Source: Candidatus Nanosynbacter sp. BB002 (GTDB lineage: Bacteria; Patescibacteriota; Saccharimonadia; Saccharimonadales; Saccharimonadaceae). Taken from it: a DNA stretch of 32,000 nucleotides. Below the pieces are notes generated by a model. That model worked only from the letters and a program-made list of their open reading frames with translations. It was not told where the DNA came from and did no database searches. Positions 9,926 through 30,320 of this stretch are shown here, piece after piece; positions within the stretch are counted from its first letter, which is position 1; each line of letters opens with the position of its first letter. The stretch spans positions 420,001 through 452,000 of the forward strand of contig NZ_CP146064.1 of assembly GCF_037013405.1 (NCBI RefSeq), read 5' to 3'. A program made the translations under genes and the position numbers.

Positions 9926-9935
9926 GATTATAATT

Positions 9936-11365: not shown

Positions 11366-11374
11366 TTTAGTCTC

Positions 11375-12497: not shown

Positions 12498-12937
12498 GAT
12501 TGTTTCTCCTCTGGCTTCTTAATTCGCACCAGGCGACAATTTGTAATGTACGTGCCCATAATGCTTGTCCTGTCGCCAGTCTCTAATGCTCTAAGCGCCG
12601 GTAATCCCACGCCACACATCTCTACAATCTGACAGACGATATTAATCTTATTGCCAGTCTCCGCATCTGGATAGACAACCAAAACATAATCGTGCATCCG
12701 CAACTTGTCATCGTCGCCTATTTCCCAATCGTCGTAGGTGAAATGACTTAAAACCAGGTCGCAGCATGCTGCGTGGTTGTAGTTGTAGTCGCTGTGGTCT
12801 AGCGGTTCTTTAACATAATCGTCCCATAGCGGCTGGCCGCAGTTGTGGCACTCTGGACGACCAGCGCAATAGCACAGATCGTGTCCATCGTTGCATGACA
12901 GCGCGCGAGGGTCGCCTCGCTGTTTTATGTCAGTCAT
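12494..12937 (-). CDS. Cys/His-rich hypothetical phage protein
   Basis: 147 aa with clustered Cys (CNDGHDLCYCAGRPECHNC, HAACC). Overlaps the upstream gene by 8 nt. Confidence 0.5.
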   Translation of the reverse strand: MTDIKQRGDPRALSCNDGHDLCYCAGRPECHNCGQPLWDDYVKEPLDHSDYNYNHAACCDLVLSHFTYDDWEIGDDDKLRMHDYVLVVYPDAETGNKINIVCQIVEMCGVGLPALRALETGDRTSIMGTYITNCRLVRIKKPEEKQS

Positions 12938-13148
12938 CGTCCAGCTCCTCTAACCTCTTTTTATTTACGTAGTCAATAAGGCTCTCGTAATCTATGTTCA
13001 TAGTCACCTCAATGCGCGGCAACAGTAGCATAGTCCCGTCAACTCCGCTTCTTGCAATGGAATCAAACTCGAAATTAGCAAAAGCCAAACATGAATCAAT
13101 ATTATCTTTGATGTAGTCTATGACCTGTTTTTGATCAGCCTGCAACAT
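12930..13148 (-). CDS. Hypothetical phage protein
   Basis: 72-aa acidic ORF. First gene after the 650-bp non-coding gap. RBS GAAAGGGA. Confidence 0.5.
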   Translation of the reverse strand: MLQADQKQVIDYIKDNIDSCLAFANFEFDSIARSGVDGTMLLLPRIEVTMNIDYESLIDYVNKKRLEELDDD

Positions 13149-13801
13149 AGTGTCCCTTTCTTCCGTCTAATTTCAACCGCATAACTGGTGGCTATATAAG
13201 GTGATGATTTGCCGAGTTTTAATTTCCTCGAATATGAGGGAATTAGGTTTCGTAAAGTCACATCACACGACATTTTTCCAGCCGATAGCTGCCTTAGTGT
13301 TCATCGTGGTGCTGTCGACAATTCTGTCAGCTTTAATCTCATCAAGCCGTCAAGGATGCAAACCCAAGACGAAAATAATGAGAGAACACGCGTCTACCTA
13401 TTCCGCCACTTATATAGCCATTCAGCAACACCATTTGTAAAGCACTAATATGGTTAATTTGTCTTGATGATGTTGCCAGTTGATAGCACCAAAATATAGT
13501 TGTTTAGAATAGCTATAAATAGGTATACAATTTTTTCCCTAAGTAACAATTAAAGGTGCGTTGGCGCTACCAGTTGAACAGACGATACACGTTACACTGC
13601 GGTTGTATGAGCCGACTCACAACGTTTCACGATTTTTGCCTGACACGCCGGGGTGGGATGGCGTACGGCGGATAAGGAGTTGTGCATATCATCTGTCCAG
13701 TTGAGTAGACGATATGTGGAGGTCGTCTACCCAGTTATGCGGTTGAATTGTTAATGTTCACCCAGTTTTTCGACGTATGGTAGGTCAATGGTAAACAGCG
13801 T
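13149..13801. promoter_or_regulatory. Non-coding region with CCAGTT(G/A/T) iterons and long-range inverted repeats (candidate origin or regulatory hub)
   Basis: CCAGTTGA-type motifs at 13477, 13571, 13698, 13732 and 13763. An exact 17-bp inverted repeat at 13173-13189 and 13732-13748. A 12-bp inverted repeat TGGCTATATAAG at 13190-13201 and 13410-13421. No convincing ORF. Confidence 0.5.
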
Positions 13802-14788
13802 TTATATGTTCATGTTCATCTGCGAGTCGCCATCGATCCGCTTTTTACTGGTTGCGAGATAGTGCGATCCGGTCAGATTGCTATCGACGTAATTGTCGGC
13901 CAAAATATTGACGAACATCATTGCGTCACGGTTATCCATGATGATAATGCCGTCATTATTGTCTGTCATGAGCGCCAAGTTCATTTCGTCAGCATGATCA
14001 ACGACCCTTTGTCGGTCTGGTAGATGTTCAACGTCTAGCTTTAGCAGTGTGTCGGTCAGCGACCTACTATTGTCAGCTAACTCTTCCAACGACAAGCCCT
14101 CTGGGAATGACAACGCAAACTTCTCAGTTAGGTGTTTGGCGATTCGCCTAGTTACAATGTCGCTTGACGGATCTTGCCTAAACAGGTTGACGAACTTTTT
14201 CGGATTGAACGCGAACACTTTGTCGCCGGCGATTAGCACTTGGTTGTCTGCTGGTATTTTGAATGCCGCATCAGCCTTGAGTTCACCAAACTTGCTGCCA
14301 CTGGTCTGCCACGTAAGGCTGCCGCTCAACATCTGCGACCGCTGGAGCTGTTTGGCGACGTAAAAGGTCTTGTCTGGATCCTTTGGATCGCTAAACCGCG
14401 CTACAATACCGTGCATACGCTTCAGTTCGTGTTCTTGATCGTCGAATTGAGAGATGCGATCATCACCAAGGAAATAAACGAGAGTATGAGCACGCTGGAT
14501 GCTTTCAAGCTCGCTGTACATCAGGACATTGTCTATCTGATCGTTTGTTGCATAGTCTTTGATTGACAGTCCAGTCGCTGCTCCGGTTTGAACCGCGTTA
14601 AGTATTTCATAGAGAAATAATACTCGCATCTGCTCTTCCATCTTCTCTGAATCCAATGGCAAGACATATGGTGTAAAGTTTTTGTTGAAAATGAACAGGT
14701 CAATGAGTAGGTCTTTCTTATGTGCGTCAGCCCAGTTTGCCCACTGGAATATGTCGAATTGGTTGTCGTCGATCATTTTTCCCACCAA
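13802..14788 (-). CDS. Hypothetical protein, possibly DUF4868/KwaB-like
   Basis: About 325 aa. The resemblance to DUF4868 proteins is from memory only (for example DKVFAFNPKKFVNLFR). No adjacent KwaA-like membrane gene. Confidence 0.3.
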   Translation of the reverse strand: MVGKMIDDNQFDIFQWANWADAHKKDLLIDLFIFNKNFTPYVLPLDSEKMEEQMRVLFLYEILNAVQTGAATGLSIKDYATNDQIDNVLMYSELESIQRAHTLVYFLGDDRISQFDDQEHELKRMHGIVARFSDPKDPDKTFYVAKQLQRSQMLSGSLTWQTSGSKFGELKADAAFKIPADNQVLIAGDKVFAFNPKKFVNLFRQDPSSDIVTRRIAKHLTEKFALSFPEGLSLEELADNSRSLTDTLLKLDVEHLPDRQRVVDHADEMNLALMTDNNDGIIIMDNRDAMMFVNILADNYVDSNLTGSHYLATSKKRIDGDSQMNMNI

Positions 14789-15012
14789 AATCCTTTCTGC
14801 TCAGCCGCAGCCTCAGGTTGCTTTTCACTATCCTGTAGGCTGCCAGCTGGCTTATTGTTAATTTTTACCGCAATATCCACGCTGCGAACGCCGTGCTCCA
14901 GCAGCCATTTCTTAGCTTTCTTGGCTGCCACCTCTGTTTCGTAGGTTTTCGCGTGCGGCTTGTTTTTGTCGTCACTCCAGCGAACGGTGAATGTGTAATT
15001 CACTAGAGACAT
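14773..15012 (-). CDS. Hypothetical phage protein
   Basis: 79-aa basic ORF. RBS GGAGG. Overlaps the downstream gene. Confidence 0.5.
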   Translation of the reverse strand: MSLVNYTFTVRWSDDKNKPHAKTYETEVAAKKAKKWLLEHGVRSVDIAVKINNKPAGSLQDSEKQPEAAAEQKGFWWEK

Positions 15013-15080
15013 TACGTAGCCTCCAATTTCTTGCGCTTGCGGCGCTGTTTTTTGCGAAGTGCTTTTTTAGTCACGACTCC

Positions 15081-15407
15081 TCAATCTCCAAACCTCTCAT
15101 ACATACAGTTTTCGTGCATGTCTGGATAGTCTTTTCGCTCTGCGTCAGATTGAATGAGCGCCAAATTGCACATACTGCATCTGCCGTACGGTGCGGTTTG
15201 TTCAAATTCAGCCAGCTCGTCATTTTGTTTGGGTCTACGTTTGCTGATCCGTCCGCAAATCCGAGCTGCCTCCCGATTGAGTGCAAAGCCAGTTTTGCTG
15301 CCCCTTGACCTCGATCCGCCCTTTCTGCCGATTTCACGGTAGAAGTTTGGGTTTTTCGCGAGAATTGTTGCGGCAGCTTTTCTGCCGCCGGCTTCCGTTC
15401 CTGCCAT
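15081..15407 (-). CDS. KGG-repeat (stress-induced acidophilic repeat) protein
   Basis: GGRKAAATILAKNPNFYREIGRKGGSRS is typical of KGG-motif general stress proteins. RBS AGGAG. Preferred over the overlapping 15071-15337 frame. Confidence 0.55.
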   Translation of the reverse strand: MAGTEAGGRKAAATILAKNPNFYREIGRKGGSRSRGSKTGFALNREAARICGRISKRRPKQNDELAEFEQTAPYGRCSMCNLALIQSDAERKDYPDMHENCMYERFGD

Positions 15408-15420
15408 GATTCTCCTTTCC

Positions 15421-15879
15421 TTAAAATGGTATTTCGCTCAAATCAATCGGCGCGTCGAGGTCGATATCCTCGGTCGCTTTCGCTGCTTGATTAGTCGTTG
15501 TGTTTGTCGCTTTAGCGTCGGCTTCGGCGTATCGCTCAGTAGCTGGCACAGCGTTATTGCCGCTACCCTTGGCGTCGCTCAAAAACTGGAACTGGTCGAT
15601 GATGACTTCAGTGGCTTTGCGCTTGATGTCGTCCTTCTCCCAGATTCTGGTTTGCAATCTGCCAGTTATGCCAATCTGCTTGCCTTTCGGTGCATATTCT
15701 GCCAGTAGTTCGGCTGCTTTATTCCAGGCAACGCAATCGATAAAGCTAGCGTCGGCATCTTTGCCGTATCCATCAACCGCTAGTGCGAATGAGGCTACGG
15801 ACTTGCCGCTATTCGTCGTTTTGACTTCAATGTCTCGGACGACGCGACCGATTAGAGTTACTGTGTTGATTGCTGCCAT
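15421..15879 (-). CDS. ssb: Single-stranded DNA-binding protein
   Basis: OB-fold N-terminus (NTVTLIGRVVRDIEVK...) and an acidic C-terminal tip DLSEIPF. Confidence 0.9.
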   Translation of the reverse strand: MAAINTVTLIGRVVRDIEVKTTNSGKSVASFALAVDGYGKDADASFIDCVAWNKAAELLAEYAPKGKQIGITGRLQTRIWEKDDIKRKATEVIIDQFQFLSDAKGSGNNAVPATERYAEADAKATNTTTNQAAKATEDIDLDAPIDLSEIPF

Positions 15880-15881
15880 GC

Positions 15882-16688
15882 TCAGAAACTCTTTTCCTCG
15901 CGGATTTCAACACCTGGGATTTCACGTAGCCCATTGGCGATGGCTTCGCGGATTAGTTTGTCGCTCGGCTCACACAAGTAGCGTGGCACTAACTCAGGAT
16001 TGGTAACCGTGAATACCGTTTTCGTTTTAATACCAGACTTGACGGCTGGCTTCTGTGTTTTAGCAGCTTTGGCTGCTTCAGCCTCAGCAATCTCTTGCTC
16101 GCGTTTACGCTGTGCTGCCAGCTTGGCTGCTTCAGCTTCGTCGCGTTCGGCGGTCGTCAATTCGTCTTTACGTGTCAGCAGTTCGTTGATGGCTTTGGTG
16201 AATGCTAGCTTGATTTCAGCATGGTTCTGATCAGCTTCTGGTAGCTCAGCGAATACCTGCTTCAATTCAGCACCTCGCTCATCGCAGGCTTTCTGGCTGC
16301 GTAATGATTTAGCGTTGGTAGCGAACTTGGCGCAAATAGCGTCAACGCGTGCCGCTTCCTGTTTTGCCAGTCGCTCCTGCTCCTCTTGATAAGCCAGAAT
16401 CTTTTGGCTGATATTCTCTAACGCCTCTTCGGCCGGTGCCAGTACATCCTTTTCAGCGTCGATGAATTGTGACTTGACGCTGTCAAAGTTGCGAGTGATC
16501 GCCAGCCGTGCATTCTTGACTTCAGTACGGTGAGAGGTGATCAGCTTGCGGATTGCGACTGCTTCTTTAGCGGTAGTGTCGTCGGTTATCTCTTTAGCTT
16601 TGGCTTGTTCCAAAAGCTCTTGCGATTTGATTTTGAACGGCGATATCGTAGCAACCTGCGAATCGACGTATTCTTGTAGTTGTGACAT
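15882..16688 (-). CDS. Coiled-coil recombination-module protein (DUF1351-like)
   Basis: 268 aa and highly helical. Located between the Sak4-like ATPase and SSB. Confidence 0.35.
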   Translation of the reverse strand: MSQLQEYVDSQVATISPFKIKSQELLEQAKAKEITDDTTAKEAVAIRKLITSHRTEVKNARLAITRNFDSVKSQFIDAEKDVLAPAEEALENISQKILAYQEEQERLAKQEAARVDAICAKFATNAKSLRSQKACDERGAELKQVFAELPEADQNHAEIKLAFTKAINELLTRKDELTTAERDEAEAAKLAAQRKREQEIAEAEAAKAAKTQKPAVKSGIKTKTVFTVTNPELVPRYLCEPSDKLIREAIANGLREIPGVEIREEKSF

Positions 16689-16697
16689 ATTCCTCCT

Positions 16698-17525
16698 TTA
16701 CTTCCTGTCTGCTTCAGATTTACCAAGGCGAGCGCCGGTCATTTCGACGCGTGAGCTTGGAATGGTTGGTTTGGCAGCCGCTTCAATCTGCTCTCGGCTC
16801 GCCAGTGTCGGTGCTGGTGCAATCCACGCGTACTCAGCGTCGCCTCTTACGCCATCGACGATTTTCGTGAAATCTGGCTCGATGTAGCGGCCTAGCCGAC
16901 CCGTGCGGTCTTTGGCAACGTACTTGTCACTAGCTGGATCAACGATAATCAGGCGCTTGGTGTCGCCAGTTTCGGTATCATTGATCGTCGTCATGTAGCC
17001 GACGATATCCACCAGATTGACCAGTTCCTCAGATAGTCTTGTGGCGACCATCGGACGTTTAATGACGCGGCCGTCATCGTCTTTTTCCTGAACGTGAGCC
17101 ACGATAACGATATGCTTACCGCTATCGCGCATGGTTTTCAGAAAGTTTCGCATGGTCGATTTCAGCCAGCCCCAGCCAGCCATGGTCGGGTTGCCGTCGC
17201 GCTGGACCAGTTTACTGTCAGCTCTATTTCGCATATAGGCAATCAACTTCTCCATCAGCTCGCCAATCGGGTCGATAATTACCGTGTCGTAGTCCTCAGT
17301 AAGTGCGATTTGCATGAACTCCTGCATGTCGTCCCATTTTTCGATCAGTGCCACGTCGGCCGCGATACCGCGAAGTCCAAAGTATTTGCTACCATTTTCG
17401 CAGTCAGCGATGATAGGTCGTGGGGCGGTGGCTGCAAACGTTGTTTTACCGACACCGCCCTCGCCATACACAACCATCAGAATTGATGGTTTTTCGGTCG
17501 GATCTAAACTATTAAAGACTCTCAT
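16698..17525 (-). CDS. Sak4-like / AAA_24 RecA-fold ATPase
   Basis: Walker A YGEGGVGKTT and Walker B VIIDPIGE. Synteny with an exonuclease and SSB. Confidence 0.75.
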   Translation of the reverse strand: MRVFNSLDPTEKPSILMVVYGEGGVGKTTFAATAPRPIIADCENGSKYFGLRGIAADVALIEKWDDMQEFMQIALTEDYDTVIIDPIGELMEKLIAYMRNRADSKLVQRDGNPTMAGWGWLKSTMRNFLKTMRDSGKHIVIVAHVQEKDDDGRVIKRPMVATRLSEELVNLVDIVGYMTTINDTETGDTKRLIIVDPASDKYVAKDRTGRLGRYIEPDFTKIVDGVRGDAEYAWIAPAPTLASREQIEAAAKPTIPSSRVEMTGARLGKSEADRK

Positions 17526-17538
17526 ATTCTCCTTTCTT

Positions 17539-18306
17539 TTACAGGCTCCAGTCGCCTAACTCCCTCACCTCCTCGATGAGAAAGTTCGGCTCGCTGTCGC
17601 CAAACTTTATGATCTCGTCGACACACGTACGCAACTTGCGTTCGCCAGCTTCAACAAAATCGATGCCAGCAATCATGAACTGCACGCGGTATGGTGCGAC
17701 GGACTCAACCACACAGTAGGCAAACTTGACTAGCGCCGGGTCTAGCTCTAAGCTTGACGCCGTCACCAGCGTGTAAACTGCTGACTGTAAATCGTAATGC
17801 ATTGACTGTGCGGTTTTGAAAAACTTGTCGAACTTTGCGGTAGTTTTCAAGTCGGTTATCATGGCCGATTCATTAGTGCGAATCAGCACATCAGCCTTAC
17901 CTTTCATATCTACGCCGTCAGCGGTGCGAGCATACATTTCGTGCTCAAAGGTTGCGCCTTTAGCAAAAATGTATTGCTTCGCTAGCGGGTGGTTCTCGAT
18001 ATTCTTCAAAATCTGATCAGCAGCCTTGAACATGCCTAAAGTGATGATGTGTTTGCCAACAGCTTTCTGTTCGTTACGCCACGCCTTTGATTCTTTCGAG
18101 TAGAAGTTCTCAAACGGACTGATGGCGAATTGATCCTCGCCGCCGAGTATCAGCATGTGAACCAGCTGCCCCAAATCGATAGCTTTGCTGTCTAGGTCTG
18201 GCAAGTCTCCGCGTTTAGCTGCAACTGCATAATCGATACCGTGATCGAGAATCAGCTTCATTGACGAATATGACCACTCTGGTCGGCTATAGTAAGCGTC
18301 TGCCAC
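17539..18306 (-). CDS. PD-(D/E)XK phage exonuclease (RecE/DUF3799-like)
   Basis: Motif GKADVL...ITDLKT...YDLQSAVY. GTG start preceded by GGGGGAGG. Confidence 0.65.
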   Translation of the reverse strand: MADAYYSRPEWSYSSMKLILDHGIDYAVAAKRGDLPDLDSKAIDLGQLVHMLILGGEDQFAISPFENFYSKESKAWRNEQKAVGKHIITLGMFKAADQILKNIENHPLAKQYIFAKGATFEHEMYARTADGVDMKGKADVLIRTNESAMITDLKTTAKFDKFFKTAQSMHYDLQSAVYTLVTASSLELDPALVKFAYCVVESVAPYRVQFMIAGIDFVEAGERKLRTCVDEIIKFGDSEPNFLIEEVRELGDWSL

Positions 18307-18376
18307 TTACGCCTCCCCCGCCAAAGCTCGGTCAAGAAACGTCGGATCGATTAGGTTTTCCAATTTTTCAAACAAA

Positions 18377-18577
18377 CTATTTTCGTCCATAAAACTTGCC
18401 CTCAATCCACTTCATACCTTTGTCAAAAATCCGCAGCCACTTCGCTGCTTTGACCGACTTATCGAAGTCGTGGTCATTCAACTCGCGTAGCTTGTCAATC
18501 ACCCTGTCAAGTGGCTCGCGCTTATGCACCGACACCAGCTGAACTGGTGACGGCATCACGTTTACGTGTATCTTCAT
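18377..18577 (-). CDS. Hypothetical early protein
   Basis: I chose the internal ATG at 18577 because AGGAG lies upstream. The longer track ORF overlaps the upstream gene by about 100 nt. Confidence 0.45.
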   Translation of the reverse strand: MKIHVNVMPSPVQLVSVHKREPLDRVIDKLRELNDHDFDKSVKAAKWLRIFDKGMKWIEGKFYGRK

Positions 18578-18579
18578 CG

Positions 18580-18783
18580 CTAAATCTCCTTTCGCGATTT
18601 TAATTCTTGTATAGCTTCGTCGAACGCACCGTTCACAAACAGCACAATTGCCAGAACCGCGATTGCTACGAACTGCACCCACCAGAGACGCAGATCTGTT
18701 GGCTCGCTGATTGCGATTATCGCGGCTGGTAGTCCAACTACCCAGCTAATGATTTTTTTGATCTGTTTGTTTTTCGCTGCCAT
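18580..18783 (-). CDS. Small two-TM membrane protein, first gene of the early operon
   Basis: 67 aa with two hydrophobic helices. RBS AAAGGAG. Confidence 0.5.
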   Translation of the reverse strand: MAAKNKQIKKIISWVVGLPAAIIAISEPTDLRLWWVQFVAIAVLAIVLFVNGAFDEAIQELKSRKEI

Positions 18784-19748: not shown

Positions 19749-20150
19749 ATGAAAAATAGCATCAAATTATCTTTGCCAAAGTTTATAACCGAGGCTTTCC
19801 CTGTTCTTGAAGACGCAGAATATATACGCTCTTTCGCAGGACTTTTTATATTGTACCCAGATACCCAATTCTATTTATTCCAAAGCGCAGGCCACGATTC
19901 ACTACGCTCATTTATCCTTGTTGCTACGGACTATTCTGACCCGTTTGACCAAAGCTACGAATTAAAGGAGATGACAGGTAAATACGAGTTTGAGTTTACG
20001 CGTATTGTCGCTCCATATAGAAATAATAAGTTCATAGAACTTCGCCAACATGACGATATGGAGGCAGGTTACGACATACGAGATCCTCATGGGAATTGGT
20101 GCTACTATTTAACGGAGGCGACATACAGGCCAGATTGGGTGGAGCGATGA
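19749..20150 (+). CDS. Cassette 1 partner protein (immunity-like, acidic, 133 aa)
   Basis: Paralogue of 20702-21085 (shared EAFP, PDT, TDY, G.YEFEFT, PY...IE.R). Own TATAAT at 19734-19739. Confidence 0.7.
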   Translation: MKNSIKLSLPKFITEAFPVLEDAEYIRSFAGLFILYPDTQFYLFQSAGHDSLRSFILVATDYSDPFDQSYELKEMTGKYEFEFTRIVAPYRNNKFIELRQHDDMEAGYDIRDPHGNWCYYLTEATYRPDWVER

Positions 20151-20701: not shown

Positions 20702-21085
20702 ATGAATAATTATTCAAATATCCTATTTCCGGAAATAATCAATGAGGCTTTTCCAATTATCAATGATGCGTCGTATGTTCGCCAGCTGGCGTCGCTTATA
20801 CCACTCTGTCCTGATACGGCATTTCATCTGTTTGCTGATAAAAATGGATCCTTCTTCGCGCTAGTAATGACTGATTATCCCAACCCCACTAATCAGAGTG
20901 TAGAGCTCAAACAGATTTCCGGAGAATATGAATTTGAATTCACCAACCTCGTCAAGCCGTATACCGACGATAAGTATATAGAAGTTCGTGAGAATGATGA
21001 GATGAATGAATCGTTTTCCGTTCCAGATCCGAATAGTTATTATCATTATTATCTGGCAACAGTGAAGCAAAAGCTGAACTGGTGA
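20702..21085 (+). CDS. Cassette 2 partner protein (immunity-like, 127 aa)
   Basis: Paralogue of 19749-20150. Extended -10 TGATATAAT at 20681-20689. Confidence 0.7.
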   Translation: MNNYSNILFPEIINEAFPIINDASYVRQLASLIPLCPDTAFHLFADKNGSFFALVMTDYPNPTNQSVELKQISGEYEFEFTNLVKPYTDDKYIEVRENDEMNESFSVPDPNSYYHYYLATVKQKLNW

Positions 21086-22451: not shown

Positions 22452-23126
22452 ATGATAAACATAACCGTTATGCGTAAAGTTAGCTATGTCAAAAAATTCT
22501 GGTTCTACCCTATCATTAGTGCTTTTCTGTCCTTTAGTTATTTGGTGTACATGGACGGATTTGTCTCTGTCAAAGATCTTGTCCAAGAAAAAACTGGACA
22601 AACCTCTTGGCAGCGGCCCAAGCAGTGGAAGCGAATCAATAATTTGAGTTATGAAACAGATGATTACGTCTATGCAGGCTTTGGTGATAAAAAGCTCAAA
22701 GACAATAAGTCAGAATCATTAGTGTATCTGTCACAAAGTCGTGAGCCTGTCGCCCCAGCCAACGCCTCAACCCAAATATACAACAGGTTGCGAAGGTCGC
22801 TGATGACAGAACAGCACATCAGAAAAACGCTTGAGCAATCCCTGAAGAATAGTACTACCATTGAGTGCACCACAGACCCCTCTTCTACTCAAGTCATAGA
22901 TCACAAAGAATACGGCAACACAGTGGGAATCGCCTACATAACGATCAGCTGCGAGGTCGGCAGAGCGACGTTCGTCACCAAAGCTCGCCTGACTGTTGGT
23001 AAAAATGATGGACTGGCGCGGTTTATCGCCATCAGTACAGACGGCGACATCTGGGAAAAGAACGCTCAGGCCTTTGAAGCCATGTTAAATAACGTCTCAG
23101 AGGTTGGCGATGAGAGATATGTATAA
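22452..23126 (+). CDS. Membrane-anchored exported protein of unknown function
   Basis: N-terminal TM (FWFYPIISAFLSFSYLVY) followed by a roughly 170-aa mixed alpha/beta domain. The start codon is uncertain. Confidence 0.5.
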   Translation: MINITVMRKVSYVKKFWFYPIISAFLSFSYLVYMDGFVSVKDLVQEKTGQTSWQRPKQWKRINNLSYETDDYVYAGFGDKKLKDNKSESLVYLSQSREPVAPANASTQIYNRLRRSLMTEQHIRKTLEQSLKNSTTIECTTDPSSTQVIDHKEYGNTVGIAYITISCEVGRATFVTKARLTVGKNDGLARFIAISTDGDIWEKNAQAFEAMLNNVSEVGDERYV

Positions 23127-23267
23127 ATTGGTTTATGGCAGGAATTTTGAAATCTTGTCTTAATACCTAACCCCAGCCGGCAACGTCGCTGGTACCGCTG
23201 GTGACGCATCCTCAATTGACGCGCATGGGTATGAGCAGTAGTCAACTAACGGATGATTTGGTTATCA

Positions 23268-23357
23268 CCTCGCTCCGGCCCTTGAATTTGTCAATCACAT
23301 TTCGTGTGTCCTGCATCTCTGTTATTGTAGCAAACGCCAGGAAAAGAGACAAAAATC
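23268..23357 (-). repeat. Displaced duplicate of the trmH 5' end and upstream region
   Basis: Aligns with 21586-21675. The core of about 54 nt has 3 mismatches. Encodes ..TITEMQDTRNVIDKFKGRSE and then diverges into stops. Confidence 0.8.
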
Positions 23358-23398
23358 TTATCATCACGAGGAATGCAGCTCACACTCAAGCTTCCACA

Positions 23399-23677
23399 CT
23401 ATCTCACAACAAACGAAACTTCAATCACATCGCCGATGGTGATCTGCTCTTTCTGACGGACTTTCGCGGGCAGCGCCAGGAACTGCGAACCATCACCCAT
23501 CGGCAATAGTGACGTCTGCCATGATGAGCCGCCAACCGTGGCTTCTACTGCCACCAAACCTCTCACCGCGAGCGGCTTGAGCTCGTCAGTGAATTCTTGA
23601 GGCGCAGCAACATAATACCAGCCACCAGCCTGCGGAAATAAGCACACCTCGGCTGTAAATGTATATGGTTTTGCCAT
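23399..23677 (-). CDS. DUF1905-family protein
   Basis: 92 aa. The pattern GGWYYVAAP...VEATVGGSSWQTSLLPMGDG...GDVIEVSF is typical of DUF1905. Confidence 0.65.
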   Translation of the reverse strand: MAKPYTFTAEVCLFPQAGGWYYVAAPQEFTDELKPLAVRGLVAVEATVGGSSWQTSLLPMGDGSQFLALPAKVRQKEQITIGDVIEVSFVVR

Positions 23678-23679
23678 GG

Positions 23680-24054
23680 CTATTTTGCCTGCTCCACTAT
23701 GTCAACTGTCACACCAGCAGGGTCAGTCACCATAAAATGAGTCTGTCCCCATTCTTCGGTGGTCAGCGGATGGTATATCTCAGCCGAGGTTTTTTGCACA
23801 CGCTCGTATTCACTCTTTGCATCATCGACTTCAAAGCTATAAACAATACCCTTACCGTCAAACTCAGCATGTAATTGAGCAGGCTGATTGTCGAGGTCTG
23901 GCTTCATAAAAGCTAACTCTACACCGCTCGGTTTGTGCAGCAGCTGTATATACCAGTCTGCCTCAAACACCACACTAAAACCAAATGTGTCTACATAGAA
24001 TTCCTTACATTCATTCAATTTGGCCGTGATGGTAATTGGATACATTGCTTTCAT
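23680..24054 (-). CDS. VOC/glyoxalase-family protein
   Basis: Paired beta-alpha-beta-beta-beta module motifs (FYVDTFGF, FEVDD, HFMVTDPAGV). Confidence 0.7.
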   Translation of the reverse strand: MKAMYPITITAKLNECKEFYVDTFGFSVVFEADWYIQLLHKPSGVELAFMKPDLDNQPAQLHAEFDGKGIVYSFEVDDAKSEYERVQKTSAEIYHPLTTEEWGQTHFMVTDPAGVTVDIVEQAK

Positions 24055-24121
24055 GTTATCTCCTTATTATAGATTTCCCACTTAAACTATACCTTGGTGA
24101 AAGTTTAATGTATTGTAAAAA

Positions 24122-24889
24122 TCAGACATCAAATGTTCCTGCGTAATTTTTCGGTGTATAGCCAGTAATTCTCCGAAATGAGCGGATAAAGTGCGATTGG
24201 TCAGTATATACCGTGAGATAATGCTGGTTAAATGATTGTTGTAGTCGAACAACTTTAAGAAAATCGTGCGGAGAAAAACCTATCATTTGCTTAAAAATAC
24301 GCTGAAGCTGCCGAGGCGATAGATTTACTACATTTGCCATATCCGCTACGGTATGTATAGTATCTAACTGATCAAGAATCATCATAATATATTTGTTTGG
24401 TGCTATCACATTTTCAGCAGTTAGATTCTTGGTAAATTGCACCAGCACCTTTTGTTGGGCGAAAGATGGCCGCCCACATAGACGGTCATAAACTTCAGCT
24501 ATCGGCTGAGTTCCAATCTGTGATACATCAATGTGACCGCCCACAACATTTGCTATATCATCCCGCCACACACCCGGCAACAGCCGTATACCGACATAAC
24601 GGAATGATTTACCGAGATTTAATGTAGTCGATGTGGTATATGGCGTCATAATCGTCGCCATCCGACGAGATGATAAATCAAACACGATATCCACACAAGC
24701 ATCGGGCAGCACATGGTAATGAAAATCGCTCGGTAGCAACGTATCAGTCTGTAGCCACCAAAAACAATGCACTAATTTCGCTAAAGTGTCTGGCGGTGCT
24801 GTCTCGGCATATCGTACCGAATGCACCGCTCTTTTTATCCCATTCTGGGTGGGTATATACATAGTCGTATTATACCCAAAGTAAACCAT
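24122..24889 (-). CDS. AraC-family transcriptional regulator
   Basis: C-terminal double HTH (SPRQLQRIFKQMIGFSPHDF ... SHFIRSFRRITGYTPKNY). Confidence 0.8.
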   Translation of the reverse strand: MVYFGYNTTMYIPTQNGIKRAVHSVRYAETAPPDTLAKLVHCFWWLQTDTLLPSDFHYHVLPDACVDIVFDLSSRRMATIMTPYTTSTTLNLGKSFRYVGIRLLPGVWRDDIANVVGGHIDVSQIGTQPIAEVYDRLCGRPSFAQQKVLVQFTKNLTAENVIAPNKYIMMILDQLDTIHTVADMANVVNLSPRQLQRIFKQMIGFSPHDFLKVVRLQQSFNQHYLTVYTDQSHFIRSFRRITGYTPKNYAGTFDV

Positions 24890-24900
24890 AAGCTCTAGGC

Positions 24901-24923
24901 AAAAAACCGCCCAAATGAGCGGT
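24901..24923 (-). terminator. Terminator downstream of tRNA-Leu(CAG)
   Basis: ACCGC/GCGGT stem followed by T6 on the minus strand. Confidence 0.5.
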
Positions 24924-24945
24924 AATTTTCGTAACTCTGCTACCT

Positions 24946-25032
24946 TGGTACGGATGAGAGGACTTGAACCTCCACGTTCTTGCGAACACTAGCACCTGAA
25001 GCTAGCGCGTCTACCAATTCCGCCACATCCGC
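24946..25032 (-). tRNA. tRNA-Leu (anticodon CAG), CCA encoded
   Basis: Hand-folded. Acceptor GCGGATG/CATCCGT, anticodon loop TTCAGGT, long variable arm, T arm GGAGGTTCAAGTCCTCT. Confidence 0.85.
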
Positions 25033-25095
25033 GCATGGTTTGGATTGCACAGCTAATTATACGACACCAATGGCTGATACGCAAGAGATTTGAGT

Positions 25096-26700
25096 CTATG
25101 ACTTCGTGCGACACCACACGTTGAGCTCGTCAGCCAGTTCTTTGGCCGGGACTTCTTTTTTGATGTCAGGCATCAAGATGTTGGCTGGGTCGAAAATGTG
25201 TTTTATCTGAGAATAAATGGCTGTTTCGTCTGGTGAGACGGTTGCTTGCATCAAACCAGCTTTCAGGCGACCATCGCCGTAGCGACCAGCGACATTGCCG
25301 CGGCTTTCGGCGACTAACTTGGCAATTTCTGGAATTAATTTTAATAGTACTCGACGCTCGCTCACTTTGTGCAGGTTGAAGATTGGTAACAAATCAACGT
25401 AGCCATTGACCGCGTCCACGAAAACTGGCAGCGCCAGCTTGGTCTCAGCTTCCACTTTGCGTAGTTCGCTCAGAAATCCGTCCAATCGTTCTAGTGGCAG
25501 CCATAGTCCTGAAAATACCGCTGGACAGGTTGCACGTTCTTCAGTTGAGTGCAATATGAATGACAATGGAGTATAGAGTGAAGCGACTTCTTGGGTTTGG
25601 ATATCGTGGATGGCTAAGCCAACTGGATGAATATTCTCTAGCTTGCGAGCTAATTTTTTGGCGGCGCGCCCGCGAGCCCTGTCAGAGAACTCGCTCATGG
25701 TGATGATGACTGCTGCGCCTTTGAACGCTTCACGTGGCGCCCAGGAGAATTTCTTGCCTTCACTAGCAGCCCGTGCCATGATTCGCCCGTCGATGATGTC
25801 AACTTTGGAAACTTTGTGCTTCAGGGCTTCGTCAACTGCCGCTTGCGCCTCAGACATATCGCCAAATGTTGCCGTGATGGCCGTTGCGTCATTGCTGCTG
25901 TATTCTGCTTTCATGATCACTTCGCTGATGATACCTAGTGCGCCCTGAGAACCCACAAACAGTGGCGTTAGGTCAAATGAGCCGTCCTCGTCCTTGACTT
26001 TGGTGATTCCCCAAAATCCAGCTGTGCTTTTTTCGCGGCGCTTGATAGCGTCGATGATTTGCTGATTATCCTCCAGCAGGTTATCCACTTGACGATAGAT
26101 CTCGCCTTCCAGTGTTGACAGGCCTTTTTTCTTTGCTAATTCGCGCTTGTTGATGCGGCCGGTTTGGATAACGTCGCCATTTGCTAAAACGATTTCCATC
26201 TGAGAGATGGCGTCAGTGAACAATGTCGTTAAGCCGACAGAGGAAGCTACCGCGCCGGAGGCGATTGCTCCACCGATGGTTCCGTCTTGACCGATGGCTG
26301 AGACTTCTGGCAGTGCTAAATTTTTATACATAGACAACAGTTCGCGCACCGCGCTGTACTTCATGCCAACTTGCATGTGGACCAATTGTTGTTTTGGGTC
26401 GATACCTTTGGCGTGGCGCATGTATGCTTGCATATCCAAAGATACGCCGCCGCCAGTAGCAGCACCGTTGCTGTCGGTGCCTGCTCCGCGAACGACCACA
26501 GAAAGGATGTGACCTTTGTCAGCTAACTGCGAACAAAACCGCATGATTTTACGAATGTCATTGACGTTTGACGGCCGAGCGATCATCTCTGGGCGACGCG
26601 CCAGGACACTACCGTCTGATTGCGCCGCATCCAATAGCAAATCATTGACCAAAACCTCTCCAGTCAAATGTCCATTTAGATACGTCGCAACCTTATTCAT
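25096..26700 (-). CDS. FAD-linked oxidase (GlcD / D-lactate dehydrogenase family)
   Basis: FAD_binding_4-type motif VVRGAGTDSNGAATGGG plus a C-terminal FAD-oxidase domain. Confidence 0.75.
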   Translation of the reverse strand: MNKVATYLNGHLTGEVLVNDLLLDAAQSDGSVLARRPEMIARPSNVNDIRKIMRFCSQLADKGHILSVVVRGAGTDSNGAATGGGVSLDMQAYMRHAKGIDPKQQLVHMQVGMKYSAVRELLSMYKNLALPEVSAIGQDGTIGGAIASGAVASSVGLTTLFTDAISQMEIVLANGDVIQTGRINKRELAKKKGLSTLEGEIYRQVDNLLEDNQQIIDAIKRREKSTAGFWGITKVKDEDGSFDLTPLFVGSQGALGIISEVIMKAEYSSNDATAITATFGDMSEAQAAVDEALKHKVSKVDIIDGRIMARAASEGKKFSWAPREAFKGAAVIITMSEFSDRARGRAAKKLARKLENIHPVGLAIHDIQTQEVASLYTPLSFILHSTEERATCPAVFSGLWLPLERLDGFLSELRKVEAETKLALPVFVDAVNGYVDLLPIFNLHKVSERRVLLKLIPEIAKLVAESRGNVAGRYGDGRLKAGLMQATVSPDETAIYSQIKHIFDPANILMPDIKKEVPAKELADELNVWCRTKS

Positions 26701-26801
26701 ATTCCCCTTTCCTATTTATGTTTAATTTTAGCACAACCAAAAACGAAAATGAATATTATTTGGGTGGTAATTTGGCCGCGCATATGCTACAATCACCACA
26801 T

Positions 26802-26844
26802 GCGGCAGTGGCGGAATTGGTAGACGCGCTAGCCTTAGGAGCTA
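26802..26844 (+). tRNA. 5' half of a split tRNA-Leu(UAG): acceptor, D arm and anticodon stem-loop
   Basis: GCGGCAG-TG-GCGGAATTGGTAGACGCG-CTAGCCTTAGGAGCTA followed by non-tRNA sequence. TACAAT -10 at 26788-26793. Confidence 0.85.
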
Positions 26845-26900
26845 ACAAGCTCGCTTGCCTGTTCTTGTATTTTATAGGGTTAATATAGCCTTTTCTTACT

Positions 26901-26937
26901 AAAAGAGGAGTCTATTCTTGCAACAGACTCCTCTTTT
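26901..26937 (-). terminator. 13-bp-stem hairpin terminator downstream of the integrase remnant
   Basis: AAAAGAGGAGTCT/AGACTCCTCTTTT. T-runs on both strands make it potentially bidirectional. Confidence 0.6.
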
Positions 26938-26952
26938 AGACTCCTTTATCGT

Positions 26953-27585
26953 TTATAAGGATGTTTTTGCTTGATCATTGTCGTTATGTTTATTGTAAAT
27001 TTTATCGGTTACAGCGAGAAGTGCATTTGATTTTTCTGTTTCGGTTGAGTGAGTATAGATTTGCAAGGTTGTTGTTATTGAAGAATGCTCAAGGATAACT
27101 TGTGCGTCTTTTGCCGAGACGTTAGCTTCTTTGAGCATTGTAGCAACGCTGTGGCGAATCTCATGAAGCGTTATCTCTTTTAATCCCACTTTTCGAGCAG
27201 CATCTTTAAATGTTTTGATAAAGCTTCTACCGTCTATCGGGTTGTCTTTTTTAGTAAGGTAGAGAAGTTCGTCGCCATCTGGATAGAGCCATCGTTCATA
27301 TTCTGCTTGCAGCTCCTGTTTTATACTCAGCAGAAGTGGCAGATCGCGAGCACTTGTCCTTGTTTTGAGTGAGCCGATTTTTGACTCATGTCCTACGAGA
27401 TAAACTTGCTGCCTGATATGTATAGTTTTTCGGTAAAGTCAATGTCTTTCCAGTGCAAGCCAAACGCTTCACCGCGTCGTAATTCATAATGACACATGAT
27501 AAGGAATAAACCGTAGTATGGATGGTCTGTTATAGAGTAAAATGCCTTAAAAATGCTATAATATCTCCAGTATAGGCAACACGTT
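26953..27585 (-). pseudogene. Tyrosine recombinase (phage integrase) remnant: 5'-truncated with one frameshift near 27420
   Basis: ELRRGEAFGLHWKDIDF sits in one frame. The adjacent frame is open through VGHESKIGSLKTRTSARDLPLL...HEIRHSVAT...LEHSSITTTLQIYTHS. No N-terminal core-binding domain remains. Confidence 0.8.
27554..27562 (+). promoter_or_regulatory. Extended -10 (TGCTATAAT) for the EXLDI gene
   Basis: TGnTATAAT about 39 nt upstream of the ATG. RBS AAGGAGG at 27588-27594. Confidence 0.55.
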
Positions 27586-27600
27586 TAAGGAGGAAAGATT

Positions 27601-27972
27601 ATGGATTATAAAGAAATAAAGCTTAATGTTTCAAATGATAAAATTAAAGAATATAAGCAATTTGAGGGCTTAAAAATATATTCTGATATTTTTAAATCTG
27701 AAGATGAAAAGGTATTGATCAACAAAAGAATATATATTACAAAAAAACAGAATTATGTTTATTACGAAAGAACGGATGTAAATTGGAATTATTGGTCAAG
27801 CGAAAGAAATTATAATTCAACATTTAATCCGGAGAATGATAGTAAACACAACATTATATTTGAAGTTTCATCAGAATTAAGCGATTTTATTAAATATTTA
27901 GGAGAAGAAATAATTCGGAAGATTGAATTGAAACAGCACAATGGAGAAATTGTTGAGATATTAGATATTTGA
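27601..27972 (+). CDS. EXLDI-family-like small protein
   Basis: 123 aa ending in the name-giving motif E-I-L-D-I. Strong RBS. Confidence 0.6.
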   Translation: MDYKEIKLNVSNDKIKEYKQFEGLKIYSDIFKSEDEKVLINKRIYITKKQNYVYYERTDVNWNYWSSERNYNSTFNPENDSKHNIIFEVSSELSDFIKYLGEEIIRKIELKQHNGEIVEILDI

Positions 27973-28072
27973 TTGTGTTATGAAGAATAAAGCATTGACT
28001 GAAAATATAATATCTACTCAAGCACGTAAAATTCCTAATCTTAGTAATATCAATTAAATAAAAATAGTATAA

Positions 28073-28109
28073 AAACAGTAAATCAAAAAGGTTTACTGTT
28101 TTTTCTTTG
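28073..28109 (+). terminator. Rho-independent terminator after the EXLDI gene
   Basis: 10-bp stem AAACAGTAAA/TTTACTGTTT followed by TTTTCTTT. Confidence 0.65.
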
Positions 28110-28269
28110 CTTAAAAATAGAAAGAGAGGAAAAGAAAAAATGAAAATATAAAAGAAAAAAATTTTAATGACAGATGAAGAAATCAAGCAGCTACAAAACA
28201 AAGGAAAAAAGCTCATCAGCCAACAGAAACAGGAAGGAAGAAAGAAAAAAGAGAGATAAAAGAATATAT

Positions 28270-28292
28270 GAAAAAGTCGCTTTTCAAGCGAC
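28270..28292 (-). terminator. Terminator downstream of the island tRNA
   Basis: GTCGCTT/AAGCGAC stem followed by T5 on the minus strand. Confidence 0.5.
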
Positions 28293-28314
28293 AATTTCGA
28301 AAAAATTCAGATTT

Positions 28315-28399
28315 TGGTGCGGATGAAAGGACTTGAACCTTCACGCCGTGAGGCATATGCTCCTAAGGCATACGTGTCTACCAATTCCACCACATCCGC
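28315..28399 (-). tRNA. Island-borne complete tRNA-Leu (anticodon UAG), CCA encoded
   Basis: Hand-folded. Acceptor GCGGATG/CATCCGC, anticodon loop CTTAGGA, long variable arm. The T arm is identical to that of the split host gene. Confidence 0.85.
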
Positions 28400-28472
28400 A
28401 TATTTGATATTGTGAAATATTTCTGTAAGTAAGTATATCAGCAGATAAAATAAATTACCACATTTTTTAGCA

Positions 28473-29765
28473 TTATTTAACAGGAATCTTTTTTGCTAAG
28501 TCTGATAATAACTCAATTAATTGCGAACTCATAATAGGAGCTTCCTCTTTGCTTTTAAATAATTTTTTTGATTTTTTGACTTGATTATTTTCTTCATTAT
28601 TGAATATTCGGTATGCAACTGTTTTGATAATTTCATTTCTTAGTTCTACATCACCTTCAATACTTAGCAGATAAGGCTTTAGTGCTTTAAGTTGATGAGC
28701 TGTTCGTTGATTAGCTCGCTGTGCTTTGCGATGTTCGCTTGATTGAGTGGCCGTGTATCCTGCTATACCCCCAGCAAATAGCATAACAAATGCTCGAGCT
28801 ATTAAGAATTGCCATGAAGCATCCTTAGTGTGAATAATTTCATAAACTACCCAACAAGAAAATCCTAACATGATAAGCAATAAAATCGTTGTTATTACAC
28901 TCCACACATAAGCAGCTATTTTATCTTCCTTAGCACTACTAGAATAATCGTGGATTAGTGTTTTATCTCCAGCCATATTCAATAATTCATCTATTCTAGC
29001 AAGACTATCTTCTGCCTTCGCCTCAGTAGCGTTTAGCTTTTTATCTATGTCATCCGTAATGCGATCGGCTTCATCACTCTTTTTGCTAAATGTTTCTTCA
29101 ATTGTACGTTTCTGATCTTCGATGAATTTATTAACCGCCTCATTACGTATATTTTCAGATTTTGTAAATGATAGTTGCTGCTCGGTAGATATGCTATTTG
29201 ATGAATCTTTTATGTCTTTTAAATCTTTGTTAAGTTCATCTATTTTTACACCAAGTGCTTCAAACTCGTTTTTAGCTTCAGTAACTTTTTCGTCAATGGT
29301 CTTTTCTGCGGCAGTTCCTTTAACAGATATATTATTAATCTCTTTTGTTGTTACGCGCTTATATTGACCGACTGACCTATTCAATCCCGCAATAGCCTTG
29401 CGAGTTTCCTTTATGTCCATAGTGGGCGTTAATGAAGGAATGTACGACAATATATTATCGATATATCCATTCATGTAAGAAATACCTAGATACATATCAT
29501 CGCGAGTGTTTTGCCAGTTATCAAAACACGAACTTGCATTTGAAAGGTGACTGCTGATATTGTCAAGATTTGATATTGATAATAGACGACTATCTGTATT
29601 ATCAAGTCTATCCACTAAAAGCTCAATGACCAATTTTGCCCGATTGATAGCATCGATTGCTTCAAGAGACATACTGTCAGAGTCTATCTCATTAAACCTG
29701 GCTAATAATTTCTTGGCTGCAGTGTATGTGGCACTATTCTGTATACGATCTTCCCATTTACTCAT
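28473..29765 (-). CDS. Coiled-coil protein with a C-terminal two-TM module (SLATT-like?)
   Basis: 430 aa. It has a long charged helical region, then the TM helices VWSVITTILLLIMLGFSCWVVY and FLIARAFVMLFAGGIAGY, then a basic helix. Extended -10 TGATATAAT at 29826-29834 on the minus strand. Confidence 0.6.
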   Translation of the reverse strand: MSKWEDRIQNSATYTAAKKLLARFNEIDSDSMSLEAIDAINRAKLVIELLVDRLDNTDSRLLSISNLDNISSHLSNASSCFDNWQNTRDDMYLGISYMNGYIDNILSYIPSLTPTMDIKETRKAIAGLNRSVGQYKRVTTKEINNISVKGTAAEKTIDEKVTEAKNEFEALGVKIDELNKDLKDIKDSSNSISTEQQLSFTKSENIRNEAVNKFIEDQKRTIEETFSKKSDEADRITDDIDKKLNATEAKAEDSLARIDELLNMAGDKTLIHDYSSSAKEDKIAAYVWSVITTILLLIMLGFSCWVVYEIIHTKDASWQFLIARAFVMLFAGGIAGYTATQSSEHRKAQRANQRTAHQLKALKPYLLSIEGDVELRNEIIKTVAYRIFNNEENNQVKKSKKLFKSKEEAPIMSSQLIELLSDLAKKIPVK

Positions 29766-30075
29766 GAAGCATTATTCCTTTTTACTTAGTTGATTCGCCA
29801 CTCCTTATTAAAAACTTTAAACACCATTATATCACCCTTGTTTTTAAAATTGACCACCTCTAAGAGTAGAGAACTTTACTTATTCAATTTGGCTAATTAA
29901 ACTCCGCCCTAGACTCCAGAATTGACTCCTTGCGGCCCCGTACAATAACAAACAAAAACAACGAGTTAGAACTCTTATATCATTTTGCCTTTATTGCCCA
30001 TTACTTGCCCGCTGTAGGCCTCTTGTCGGCAGTGTGCGTAGTTCCCTCCGCTAAGTGAAAAGGAAACTTAATTAT

Positions 30076-30133
30076 CTAGCCTTAGGAGCTAGTGCCTTCG
30101 GGCGTGAAGGTTCAAGTCCTTTCTGCCGCACCA
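30076..30133 (+). tRNA. 3' half of the split tRNA-Leu(UAG): anticodon stem-loop, variable arm, T arm, acceptor, CCA
   Basis: CTAGCCTTAGGAGCTAG-TGCCTTCGGGCGT-GAAGGTTCAAGTCCTTT-CTGCCGC-ACCA. The acceptor is complementary to the 5' half at 26802. Confidence 0.85.
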
Positions 30134-30225: not shown

Positions 30226-30255
30226 TTGACTATATCAAAACGCATATGCTACAAT
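30226..30255 (+). promoter_or_regulatory. Promoter of the TasA-like gene
   Basis: TTGACT, an 18-nt spacer, then TGCTACAAT. Confidence 0.55.
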
Positions 30256-30320
30256 CGCGCCAAGATAGAAAATAATACAAGACATCTACTTTTAGGTAGT
30301 CGAGGAGGGTTTATATCACT

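Follow-up and report, generated by a model that had tools for sequence, protein, structure and literature searches.

A probable decayed integrative element splits the tRNA-Leu(UAG) gene of an oral Saccharibacteria genome and carries a replacement copy

In the 2002 classification of Williams, tRNA-targeting integrases that act in the anticodon loop, such as those of HP1 and the P22 type, reportedly form a class of their own. Decayed integrative elements that retain attachment (att) sites and can be mobilised by the recombinase of a related element are known as cis-mobilisable elements (CIMEs). The closest described system is tRNA-dependent lysogeny, which has been shown experimentally in mycobacteriophages (Fionnbharth, K4; Cluster L; Gaia, X) and in Gordonia phages (CQ2 and DL) (Guerrero-Bustamante and Hatfull, mBio 2024, PMC10865867); prophage Lj965 of Lactobacillus johnsonii (Ventura et al., 2003/2004), cited here as it is portrayed in that study, is named there as an earlier hint of the principle. 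A tRNA gene fragmented by a mobile element has also been described in the archaeon Caldiarchaeum subterraneum (Sugahara et al., 2012, PMC3293823). Here we analyse a 32-kb stretch of the genome of a Nanosynbacter, an oral member of the Saccharibacteria (hereafter the window, to whose positions all coordinates refer), in which a 3.2-kb island lies within the tRNA-Leu(UAG) gene. The overall explanation, which we consider very probable, is that the insert is a decayed integrative element that split the gene and supplies its own copy of the tRNA; the split, the empty site in relatives, the position of the crossover, the conserved replacement tRNA, the decay of the integrase and a complete relative of the same layout are presented below.

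The two halves of the host gene (Table 1) lie on either side of an insert of 3,231 bp (26845-30075), to which one copy of a 16-bp core is added, and the GC content of the island is 23-40% vs. about 50% in the flanks. The 5′ half reads GCGGCAGTGGCGGAATTGGTAGACGCGCTAGCCTTAGGAGCTA and the 3′ half CTAGCCTTAGGAGCTAGTGCCTTCGGGCGTGAAGGTTCAAGTCCTTTCTGCCGCACCA; both were found exactly where an initial annotation of the sequence had placed them, as was the 16-bp duplication it had reported at the two junctions, CTAGCCTTAGGAGCTA, with copies at 26829-26844 and 30076-30091 and identity ending right outside both. When 26802-26844 is fused to 30092-30133, one copy of the repeat being kept, the product is an 85-nt tRNA-Leu(UAG) that is accepted by ARAGORN. 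The same annotation had held that neither junction regenerates a tRNA, a reading that a covariance match to a full tRNA at one of them would have contradicted: ARAGORN returned no tRNA for the left or the right junction taken singly, the left junction scored 18.1 bits in Rfam, under the gathering score of 29, and no full-length match was obtained at either. In the window as a whole, ARAGORN recognised only a tRNA-Leu(CAG) at 24946-25032 and the tRNA-Leu(UAG) carried by the island, each of them on the minus strand. The split layout was seen in more than 40 independent assemblies and is therefore not an assembly artefact. Just upstream of the orphaned 5′ half, the 16-mer CGCATATGCTACAATC is an exact repeat of a segment found upstream of orf209 (30241-30256), where the promoter copy (30226-30255) scores as TTGACT-18-TACAAT with TG upstream; this 16-mer looks like an extended -10 promoter of the host, common to the tRNA 5′ half and orf209.

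Island-free relatives with an uninterrupted tRNA had been predicted from the split, and three such loci were found (L049, L090 and L142), with an intact tRNA identical to the joined halves lying between the same flavin adenine dinucleotide (FAD)-linked oxidase gene and orf209; their alignments to the left and right flanks of the window overlap by exactly the 16-bp repeat. The host tRNA-Leu(UAG) genes that contain island copies are of at least five variants and lie in differing genomic neighbourhoods, and since the acceptor stems of the two halves are complementary in every variant (e.g., GCGGATG/CATCCGC and GCACGAG/CTCGTGT), each pair derives from a functional gene of that type. Some of these hosts have the anticodon stem CATGC...GCATG in place of CTAGC...GCTAG, and in them attL reads ...CATGCCTTAGGAGC followed directly by TAACA, and attR reads AATTATCTAGCCTTAGGAGC followed by ATGTGC. 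The attL junction, in which GGAGC meets TAACA(A/G)(A/G)CTCGC, is constant across all copies and all host tRNA types. Hybrid attL and attR sites in hosts with CATGC or TATGC stems therefore place the crossover within GCCTTAGGAGC, that is the anticodon loop and its closing pairs, and the common core measures 16 bp in the window, 11 bp in the CATGC-stem hosts and 12 bp in the related element L201. As read from these junctions, exchange within this segment is the signature of site-specific recombination, presumably by a tyrosine integrase of the anticodon-loop type, and the reconstructed attP is AATTATCTAGCCTTAGGAGCTAACAAGC. In five loci (L155, L139, L158, L159 and L172) the 5′ half at attL is itself chimeric, with the acceptor and the start of the D arm of the local GCGGATG type and the rest (GACGCGCTAGCC) of the window type, a pattern suggestive of recombination across lineages between loci that carry the island.

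The integrase of the island had been described as truncated and frameshifted, and it is both; the truncation, a loss of about 190 N-terminal residues, is common to every 3.2-kb island copy, whereas the frameshift and the loss of the start codon are limited to the lineage of the window and a few mosaic copies such as L163. In the window, a 1-bp deletion between 27426 and 27427 (relative to intact 193-aa copies) interrupts the reading frame and the start codon at 27531-27533 is ATA, not ATG, so that the catalytic residues R..K..HxxR..H/W..Y are still encoded (ELRRGE, LKTR, HEIRH, GHSS, IYTH), but in an open reading frame (ORF) that is split and startless. Relatives were sought among 1.84 billion protein representatives, and the closest full-length integrase, P0286 (377 aa), is 67% identical over its residues 190-369; other full-length relatives (P0138-P0140; 370-382 aa) align with the remnant at about residues 190-370, and the relatives of P0138 in the viral collection, at no more than 32% identity, are too distant to inform. 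The intact 193-aa form matches PF00589 at 98 bits over model positions 25-171 only, and when the N-terminal 195 residues of P0138, P0139 and P0140 were used as tblastn queries, no N-terminal remnant came up in the window or in any island copy. This ORF is intact in 6 of the 24 copies examined (L130, L139, L148, L155, L172 and L173), where its ratio of non-synonymous to synonymous substitution rates (dN/dS) is 0.10-0.43, and it is disrupted by at least three different lesions in the others. A natural family of 'mini-integrases' like FimB/FimE was considered and rejected, the nearest relatives being 370-382 aa long and the 193-aa form matching their C-terminal halves only. A search for a second integrase able to act in trans, by tblastn with the remnant and P0010, returned only the remnant within the window. 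The 3′ end of the integrase gene, its terminator hairpin and the arm motifs are all undamaged in the island copies. Related elements encode integrases at their full length of 371-382 aa. The 3.2-kb copy in the window cannot move on its own.

How the island came to this genome may be considered apart from what it is. Import of the already decayed island from a related strain by homologous recombination, through natural transformation and by way of the flanking genes or of the tRNA halves, is a serious possibility, to which we would give a little less than even weight. Identity across the species group is 99.8-100% for the island, but 87-95% for the FAD-oxidase gene beside it and about 92% for orf209; between some genomes the island is 100% identical with flanks that differ by 6-8%, and the genomes are mosaics of near-identical and diverged blocks. 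The island of L163 is a mosaic as well (left part window-like at 97%, with the same frameshift; right part at 87%), and the chimeric attL sites and the truncated integrase of all 3.2-kb copies tell in the same direction. Part of the identity between islands is to be read with the sampling in mind, as L002-L011 were retrieved by their identical 430-aa protein, which biases them towards identical islands. Import of this kind bears on the route of arrival only, not on the nature of the structure. To enter each of the five tRNA variants for the first time, the island had to cross over within a stretch of 11 nt; homologous recombination needs more than that, whereas such a length is typical of site-specific events. 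The idea that the island went through a recent selective sweep was dropped as a firm claim, given that other nearby blocks are also about 100% identical and that retrieval was biased by the identity of the 430-aa protein. The FAD-linked oxidase gene (25096-26700), beside the att site, is a hot spot of divergence between neighbours (23000-25100 and the island) that are 98-100% identical, a pattern that indicates allelic mosaicism by recombination.

The tRNA carried by the island had been described as a complete but diverged tRNA-Leu(UAG) on the opposite strand with its own terminator, and ARAGORN, Rfam and the hairpin with its T run bore this out (Table 1). Across 20 distinct island copies, none of its 85 positions varies, vs. 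up to 13% divergence in the DNA of the island, and the 19-bp segment upstream is unchanged in 20 of 20; a promoter role of this segment (ATTTCACAATATCAAATAT) is presumed from the spacing of CACAAT, similar to the host TACAAT. In L165 the tRNA, orf430 and attR persist although the integrase, orf123 and the 5′ half have disappeared. The acceptor strand of the island tRNA is GCGGATG, against GCGGCAG in the host type. The sequence is the same as that of the native tRNA of other Saccharibacteria (L084 and L098) and of the joined halves of L201, and is therefore an ordinary Saccharibacteria allele; its sole difference from the commonest one is the 27:43 base pair. Saccharibacteria have genomes of about 0.8 Mb with minimal tRNA sets, and among the anticodons expected for leucine CUA can be read by UAG alone, a codon whose frequency (as CTA) in the host genes is 12.7 per 1000. 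One genome per species was scanned with a pattern for the Saccharibacteria-type tRNA-Leu(UAG), yielding at least 120 loci; among the listed matches there is one per large Saccharibacteria contig, contigs of 0.55-1.0 Mb included, and no additional intact copy was seen in the island-bearing assemblies examined. The initial annotation had supposed that the host may rely on this immobilised element for the isoacceptor: the single match per large contig, the use of CUA codons and the invariance of the island tRNA support that dependence, short of proof, and we consider it probable.

The alternative, that the host is not dependent and has another functional tRNA-Leu(UAG) elsewhere in its genome, is unlikely. 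A divergent copy would escape the scan pattern; against it stand the single match per stretch in the survey, the lack of any extra intact copy in the assemblies with an island, and the invariance of the island tRNA and its 19 bp upstream while the rest of the island diverges or is deleted. An apparent tandem duplication of the gene in L066 (2294-2407) was discarded as a scaffolding-gap artefact, with a run of N and the start of the tRNA repeated on either side.

Complete relatives of the island follow the same plan. L201 and L202 hold a complete element of 6,449 bp between 12-bp repeats, with the same layout as the window island and in the same neighbourhood (FAD oxidase, SpoU methylase and histidyl-tRNA synthetase, HisRS). 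Its order is the 5′ half, the integrase P0286 (377 aa), an HTH_17 excisionase (Xis)-like gene, a 90-aa ORF, a tRNA-Leu(UAG) of its own on the strand opposite to the split gene, a 1336-aa cargo gene and the 3′ half. In L201 the GC content of the element is 0.40 vs. 0.54 in the flanks, GACTCC/GGAGTC motifs cluster at both ends, and the 1336-aa cargo had no match in PADLOC. At the same site, L203-205 carry a larger element resembling an integrative and conjugative element (ICE), with genes for a restriction enzyme, an MT-A70 methylase, a TrwB-like coupling protein, Replic_Relax, Xis and a 371-aa integrase; their 5′ halves are likewise left unrebuilt, no intact tRNA was found in the 21-kb L203 locus, and L191 has an unrebuilt junction of the same kind at tRNA-Leu(UAG). 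In L203 (11253-11480), as in L204 and L205, the promoter and the tRNA-Leu(UAG) 5′ half are present twice in tandem, at a distance of about 180 bp; the non-tRNA sequence that follows differs between the two copies, which may be the trace of integrations that occurred one after another at a single site. Elsewhere, the integrase P0140 abuts a tRNA-Leu(CAA) 5′ half ending in the anticodon loop (L200, 7560-7704), and P0010 lies beside a complete tRNA-Leu(CAA) (L189, 1529-1615) among Replic_Relax and coupling-protein genes; the arrangement of these two loci suggests that the disrupt-and-replace strategy may extend to a second leucine isoacceptor.

These elements also bear on whether a canonical integration rebuilt the tRNA at the left junction, the rebuilt 3′ portion being deleted later. 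Most tRNA-targeting integrases do regenerate their gene and the island is visibly decayed, but the attL junction does not change between copies or host tRNA types, and the 3′ end of the integrase gene, the terminator hairpin and the arm motifs are intact. In the complete L201 and L202, which have a full-length integrase and Xis, the gene is not rebuilt either, and the element has just 12 bp in common with it. Such a history is therefore very improbable. That the halves work as a split tRNA whose parts are joined in trans, in the manner of Nanoarchaeum, or that the insert is a giant intron, is less credible still: the 5′ half keeps its promoter-like motif and both halves are identical to the intact gene of relatives, but no complementary leader sequences flank them, the anticodon stem-loop is duplicated and not divided, the insert has an integrase, arm sites and foreign GC content, and other copies have chimeric or mutated halves or, in L165, no 5′ half at all. 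We know of no bacterial precedent for a split tRNA joined in trans.

Reading the insert as a decayed integrative element, we would propose the following course of events. A tyrosine integrase would have recombined a short attP core, CTAGC-CTTAGGA-GCTA, which appears to mimic the tRNA anticodon stem-loop, with the anticodon stem-loop of the tRNA-Leu(UAG) gene. Because attP shares 11-16 bp with the gene and does not carry the 3′ portion of the tRNA, integration cuts the gene in two and leaves both junctions without a rebuilt copy. To make up for this, the element would bring a complete tRNA-Leu(UAG) gene of its own on the opposite strand, equipped with a promoter region and a terminator. With the integrase dead (N-terminal domains and start lost, frame shifted), the island is locked in place, and CUA codons in this cell would most likely be read through the island tRNA alone. 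That this genome has no further tRNA-Leu(UAG) and that the island copy is expressed are inferences, as is the part played by the cargo.

Several observations weigh against this interpretation. The excised or circular attP, expected as AATTATCTAGCCTTAGGAGC followed by TAACA, was absent from 30 metagenome and 5 viral loci matching the attR pattern. All 3.2-kb copies share the truncation of the integrase and yet occupy five tRNA variants, which calls for a helper integrase, or for mobilisation before the truncated variant spread by recombination; trans-mobilisation by a full-length integrase of the clade fits the conserved arm motifs, and spread by recombination fits the mosaic islands and the chimeric attL sites. 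In the window and in L148 the halves are identical to the intact gene, though island and flanks diverge by 5-8%, and such undecayed halves would be less expected from one old insertion than from an arrival that was recent or independent. The dN/dS of 0.10-0.43 in a 193-aa ORF deprived of DNA-binding domains is unexpected for a dead gene. Finally, a second, divergent tRNA-Leu(UAG) may exist elsewhere in the host genome, and the expression of the island tRNA is presumed.

More tentatively, and as an idea we hold with rather less than even confidence, a whole family of non-phage elements in oral Saccharibacteria, from ICE-like forms to the 3.2-kb mini-island with its defence-type cargo, may hold an essential tRNA 'hostage': they would destroy the single tRNA-Leu(UAG) gene and supply a foreign allele that can no longer be lost once the integrase has decayed. 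Several species with five native sequences would now share one acquired tRNA, an addiction-like lateral replacement, and the mini-island might still move in trans through integrases of the clade that read the GACTCC arms.

Table 1. Features of the split tRNA-Leu(UAG) locus and of its island, in window positions.
Feature	Position	Strand	Evidence or remark
Promoter-like motif CGCATATGCTACAATC, extended -10, just 5′ of the orphaned 5′ half	26779-26794	+	Exact 16-nt repeat; putative function
Host tRNA-Leu(UAG) 5′ half (acceptor strand, D arm, anticodon stem-loop); attL junction	26802-26844	+	Same as 5′ part of intact tRNA in L049, L090, L142
Island left arm: hairpin 26899-26939 (inverted repeat), three GGAGTC/GACTCC motifs 26907-26944	26845-26952	.	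Candidate arm-type integrase-binding sites
Tyrosine-integrase remnant, catalytic domain only	26953-27533	-	Pfam PF00589; ~190 N-terminal residues missing
orf123, EXLDI-family small protein	27601-27972	+	NCBIfam TIGR04342, E = 8.6e-31
Terminator-like hairpin and T run, directly 3′ of island tRNA	28276-28292	-	
Replacement tRNA-Leu(UAG), complete, CCA encoded	28315-28399	-	ARAGORN; Rfam 59.6 bits
Invariant 19 bp upstream of island tRNA, coding strand ATTTCACAATATCAAATAT, presumed promoter -10 region	28400-28418	-	
orf430, coiled coil and two C-terminal transmembrane helices, weak SLATT/PycTM similarity	28473-29765	-	
Island right arm, ~200 bp, conserved; three direct T(A/T)(A/G)ACTCC repeats, 12-bp spacing, 29898-29929	29876-30075	.	
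Host tRNA-Leu(UAG) 3′ half (anticodon stem-loop, variable arm, T arm, acceptor-CCA); attR junction	30076-30133	+	

The motifs repeated in the two arms of the island are candidate arm-type integrase-binding sites, judging from where they occur: the four exact matches to AGACTCC in the 32-kb window all lie within the island arms, GACTCC recurs in the arms across the integrase clade, and it clusters beside the integrase genes of the full-length relatives. The right arm is kept even in variants with swapped cargo (L180 and L183). In L009 and L148 a 41-bp deletion (equivalent of 26889-26929) leaves little of the left-arm hairpin and only one of the three GACTCC/GGAGTC motifs, and an indel of 129 bp at 28143-28271, in the interval from orf123 to the tRNA terminator, tells two island subtypes apart.

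Two further genes are carried by the window island. The product of orf123 matches TIGR04342 at 106.8 bits (cutoff 32), its residues 3-123 covering profile positions 1-124, and its dN/dS is 0.07-0.34. That of orf430 is similar to NCBIfam SLATT_1 over residues 270-372 with 20.5 bits, below the cutoff of 41 (E = 3.5e-4), and to PycTM of PADLOC with E = 0.006; its dN/dS is 0.19-0.5. Among 329 homologues of orf430, the best 120 are at least 93% identical, and the 430-aa protein is present unchanged on more than 20 contigs, including CP040004.1 (782 kb). A PHROGs search with orf430 and orf123 gave no match and no phage genes were found on the island, nor did PADLOC and PHROGs together return anything convincing for the two proteins. 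L180 and L183 have the tRNA and the right arm of the window island, with orf430 swapped for other cargo, namely a 1200-aa helicase with an MTES_1575 nuclease (PADLOC PDC-S37, E = 1e-69; Hhe- and MkoA-like), an AbiJ_NTD3/Hypoth_Ymh (AbiJ-like) protein and a 413-aa ORF. The island appears to be a carrier of exchangeable defence-type cargo, and the EXLDI and SLATT-like pair is probably a conflict or defence module.

The window also holds, at about 1-18700, a prophage-like block with a portal (5435-7747), a large terminase (7979-9376), a protease-capsid fusion (3446-5344), tail-type ORFs, a single-stranded DNA-binding protein (SSB, 15421-15879), an AAA_24 ATPase (16698-17525) and a PD-(D/E)XK nuclease (17539-18306). 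Neither an integrase nor the ends of this block were seen inside the window; L002 and L005-L008 are without it, HisRS directly following the SpoU methylase region. On the minus strand of the block, a 319-aa ORF (10406-11365) consists mostly of tandem pentapeptide repeats, and near the right edge of the block two paralogous small ORFs of 133 and 127 aa (19749-20150 and 20702-21085) share the motif FP(V/I)...DA.Y(I/V)R...PDT.F.LF.

A disrupt-and-replace strategy for tRNA genes, experimentally established only in actinobacteriophages (2024), appears to exist also in non-phage elements and in the reduced genomes of the candidate phyla radiation (CPR) and Saccharibacteria. The end state of the process is visible here, with a decayed integrase and a perfectly kept element tRNA; an essential gene of translation would thereby have been laterally replaced, by a remnant that could no longer be lost. 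Consequences follow for annotation and for the quality of metagenome-assembled genomes, where a native tRNA that seems missing or fragmented may be complemented from within an island, and for island-finding tools, which expect a regenerated tRNA and a fragment at the ends and would miss or misjudge such elements. An Int-Xis-tRNA cassette like that of L201 could serve as a self-selecting integration vector for the hard-to-manipulate Saccharibacteria, a use that the mycobacterial study proposed for phage-derived plasmids (PMC10865867).

Compared with known systems, the locus resembles the fragmented gene of Caldiarchaeum in that an insertion encoding a recombinase, about 2 kb long in that archaeon, comes between a piece of a tRNA gene and the remainder; the Caldiarchaeum case is archaeal, is tied to intron gain and has no replacement tRNA on the element (PMC3293823). 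With the anticodon-loop class of integrases it shares the crossover in the 7-nt anticodon loop, here inside GCCTTAGGAGC, and the symmetric stem as core-type binding sites, but a canonical attP carries the whole 3′ portion of the tRNA and regenerates the gene, which the Saccharibacteria family does not. Like CIMEs, the island keeps an att core and arm motifs next to a defective recombinase of its own, and full-length integrases of the clade with GACTCC arms occur in other Saccharibacteria; unlike them, its 193-aa catalytic fragment is under purifying selection in some copies, and mobilisation in trans is here only putative. Prophage Lj965, as portrayed in the phage study, differs in being a full prophage of a Firmicute host.

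The likeness to tRNA-dependent lysogeny is the closest (PMC10865867). In both cases a tyrosine integrase acts on an attB overlapping a tRNA gene, no functional tRNA is present at attL or attR, the core is short (8-17 bp in the phages, 11-16 bp here) and the tRNA of the element has the same anticodon as the disrupted gene, phage Gaia also targeting a tRNA-Leu gene. The island accordingly has the family of integrase, the attB in a tRNA gene, the short core without rebuilding and the tRNA of the same isotype and anticodon, as do L201 and L202; it is no temperate phage, it has no N-terminal arm- and core-binding (SAM-like) domains and its catalytic ORF is not intact in the window. The cases described involve temperate actinobacterial phages whose integrases are full-length and arm-binding, and lysogeny phenotypes define the phenomenon, whereas the island is a 3.2-kb non-phage CPR element, known from sequence alone, that carries defence-like cargo but lacks genes for structural proteins or lysis. 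Its relatives comprise small Int-Xis islands as well as elements similar to ICEs or to actinomycete ICEs (AICEs), with Replic_Relax and a TrwB-like coupling protein. Since there are no phage genes on it and its relatives carry Replic_Relax and coupling proteins, the system works like tRNA-dependent lysogeny but is not lysogeny. Among the publications listed as using that term (20 of 23), judged by title and the start of the abstract, no Saccharibacteria case was found. The principle of disrupting and replacing a tRNA gene is already known from phages, and does not appear to have been reported before for this kind of element and host; what sets the window island further apart from the phages is that its integrase function is lost, so that the replacement of the tRNA would have become permanent.

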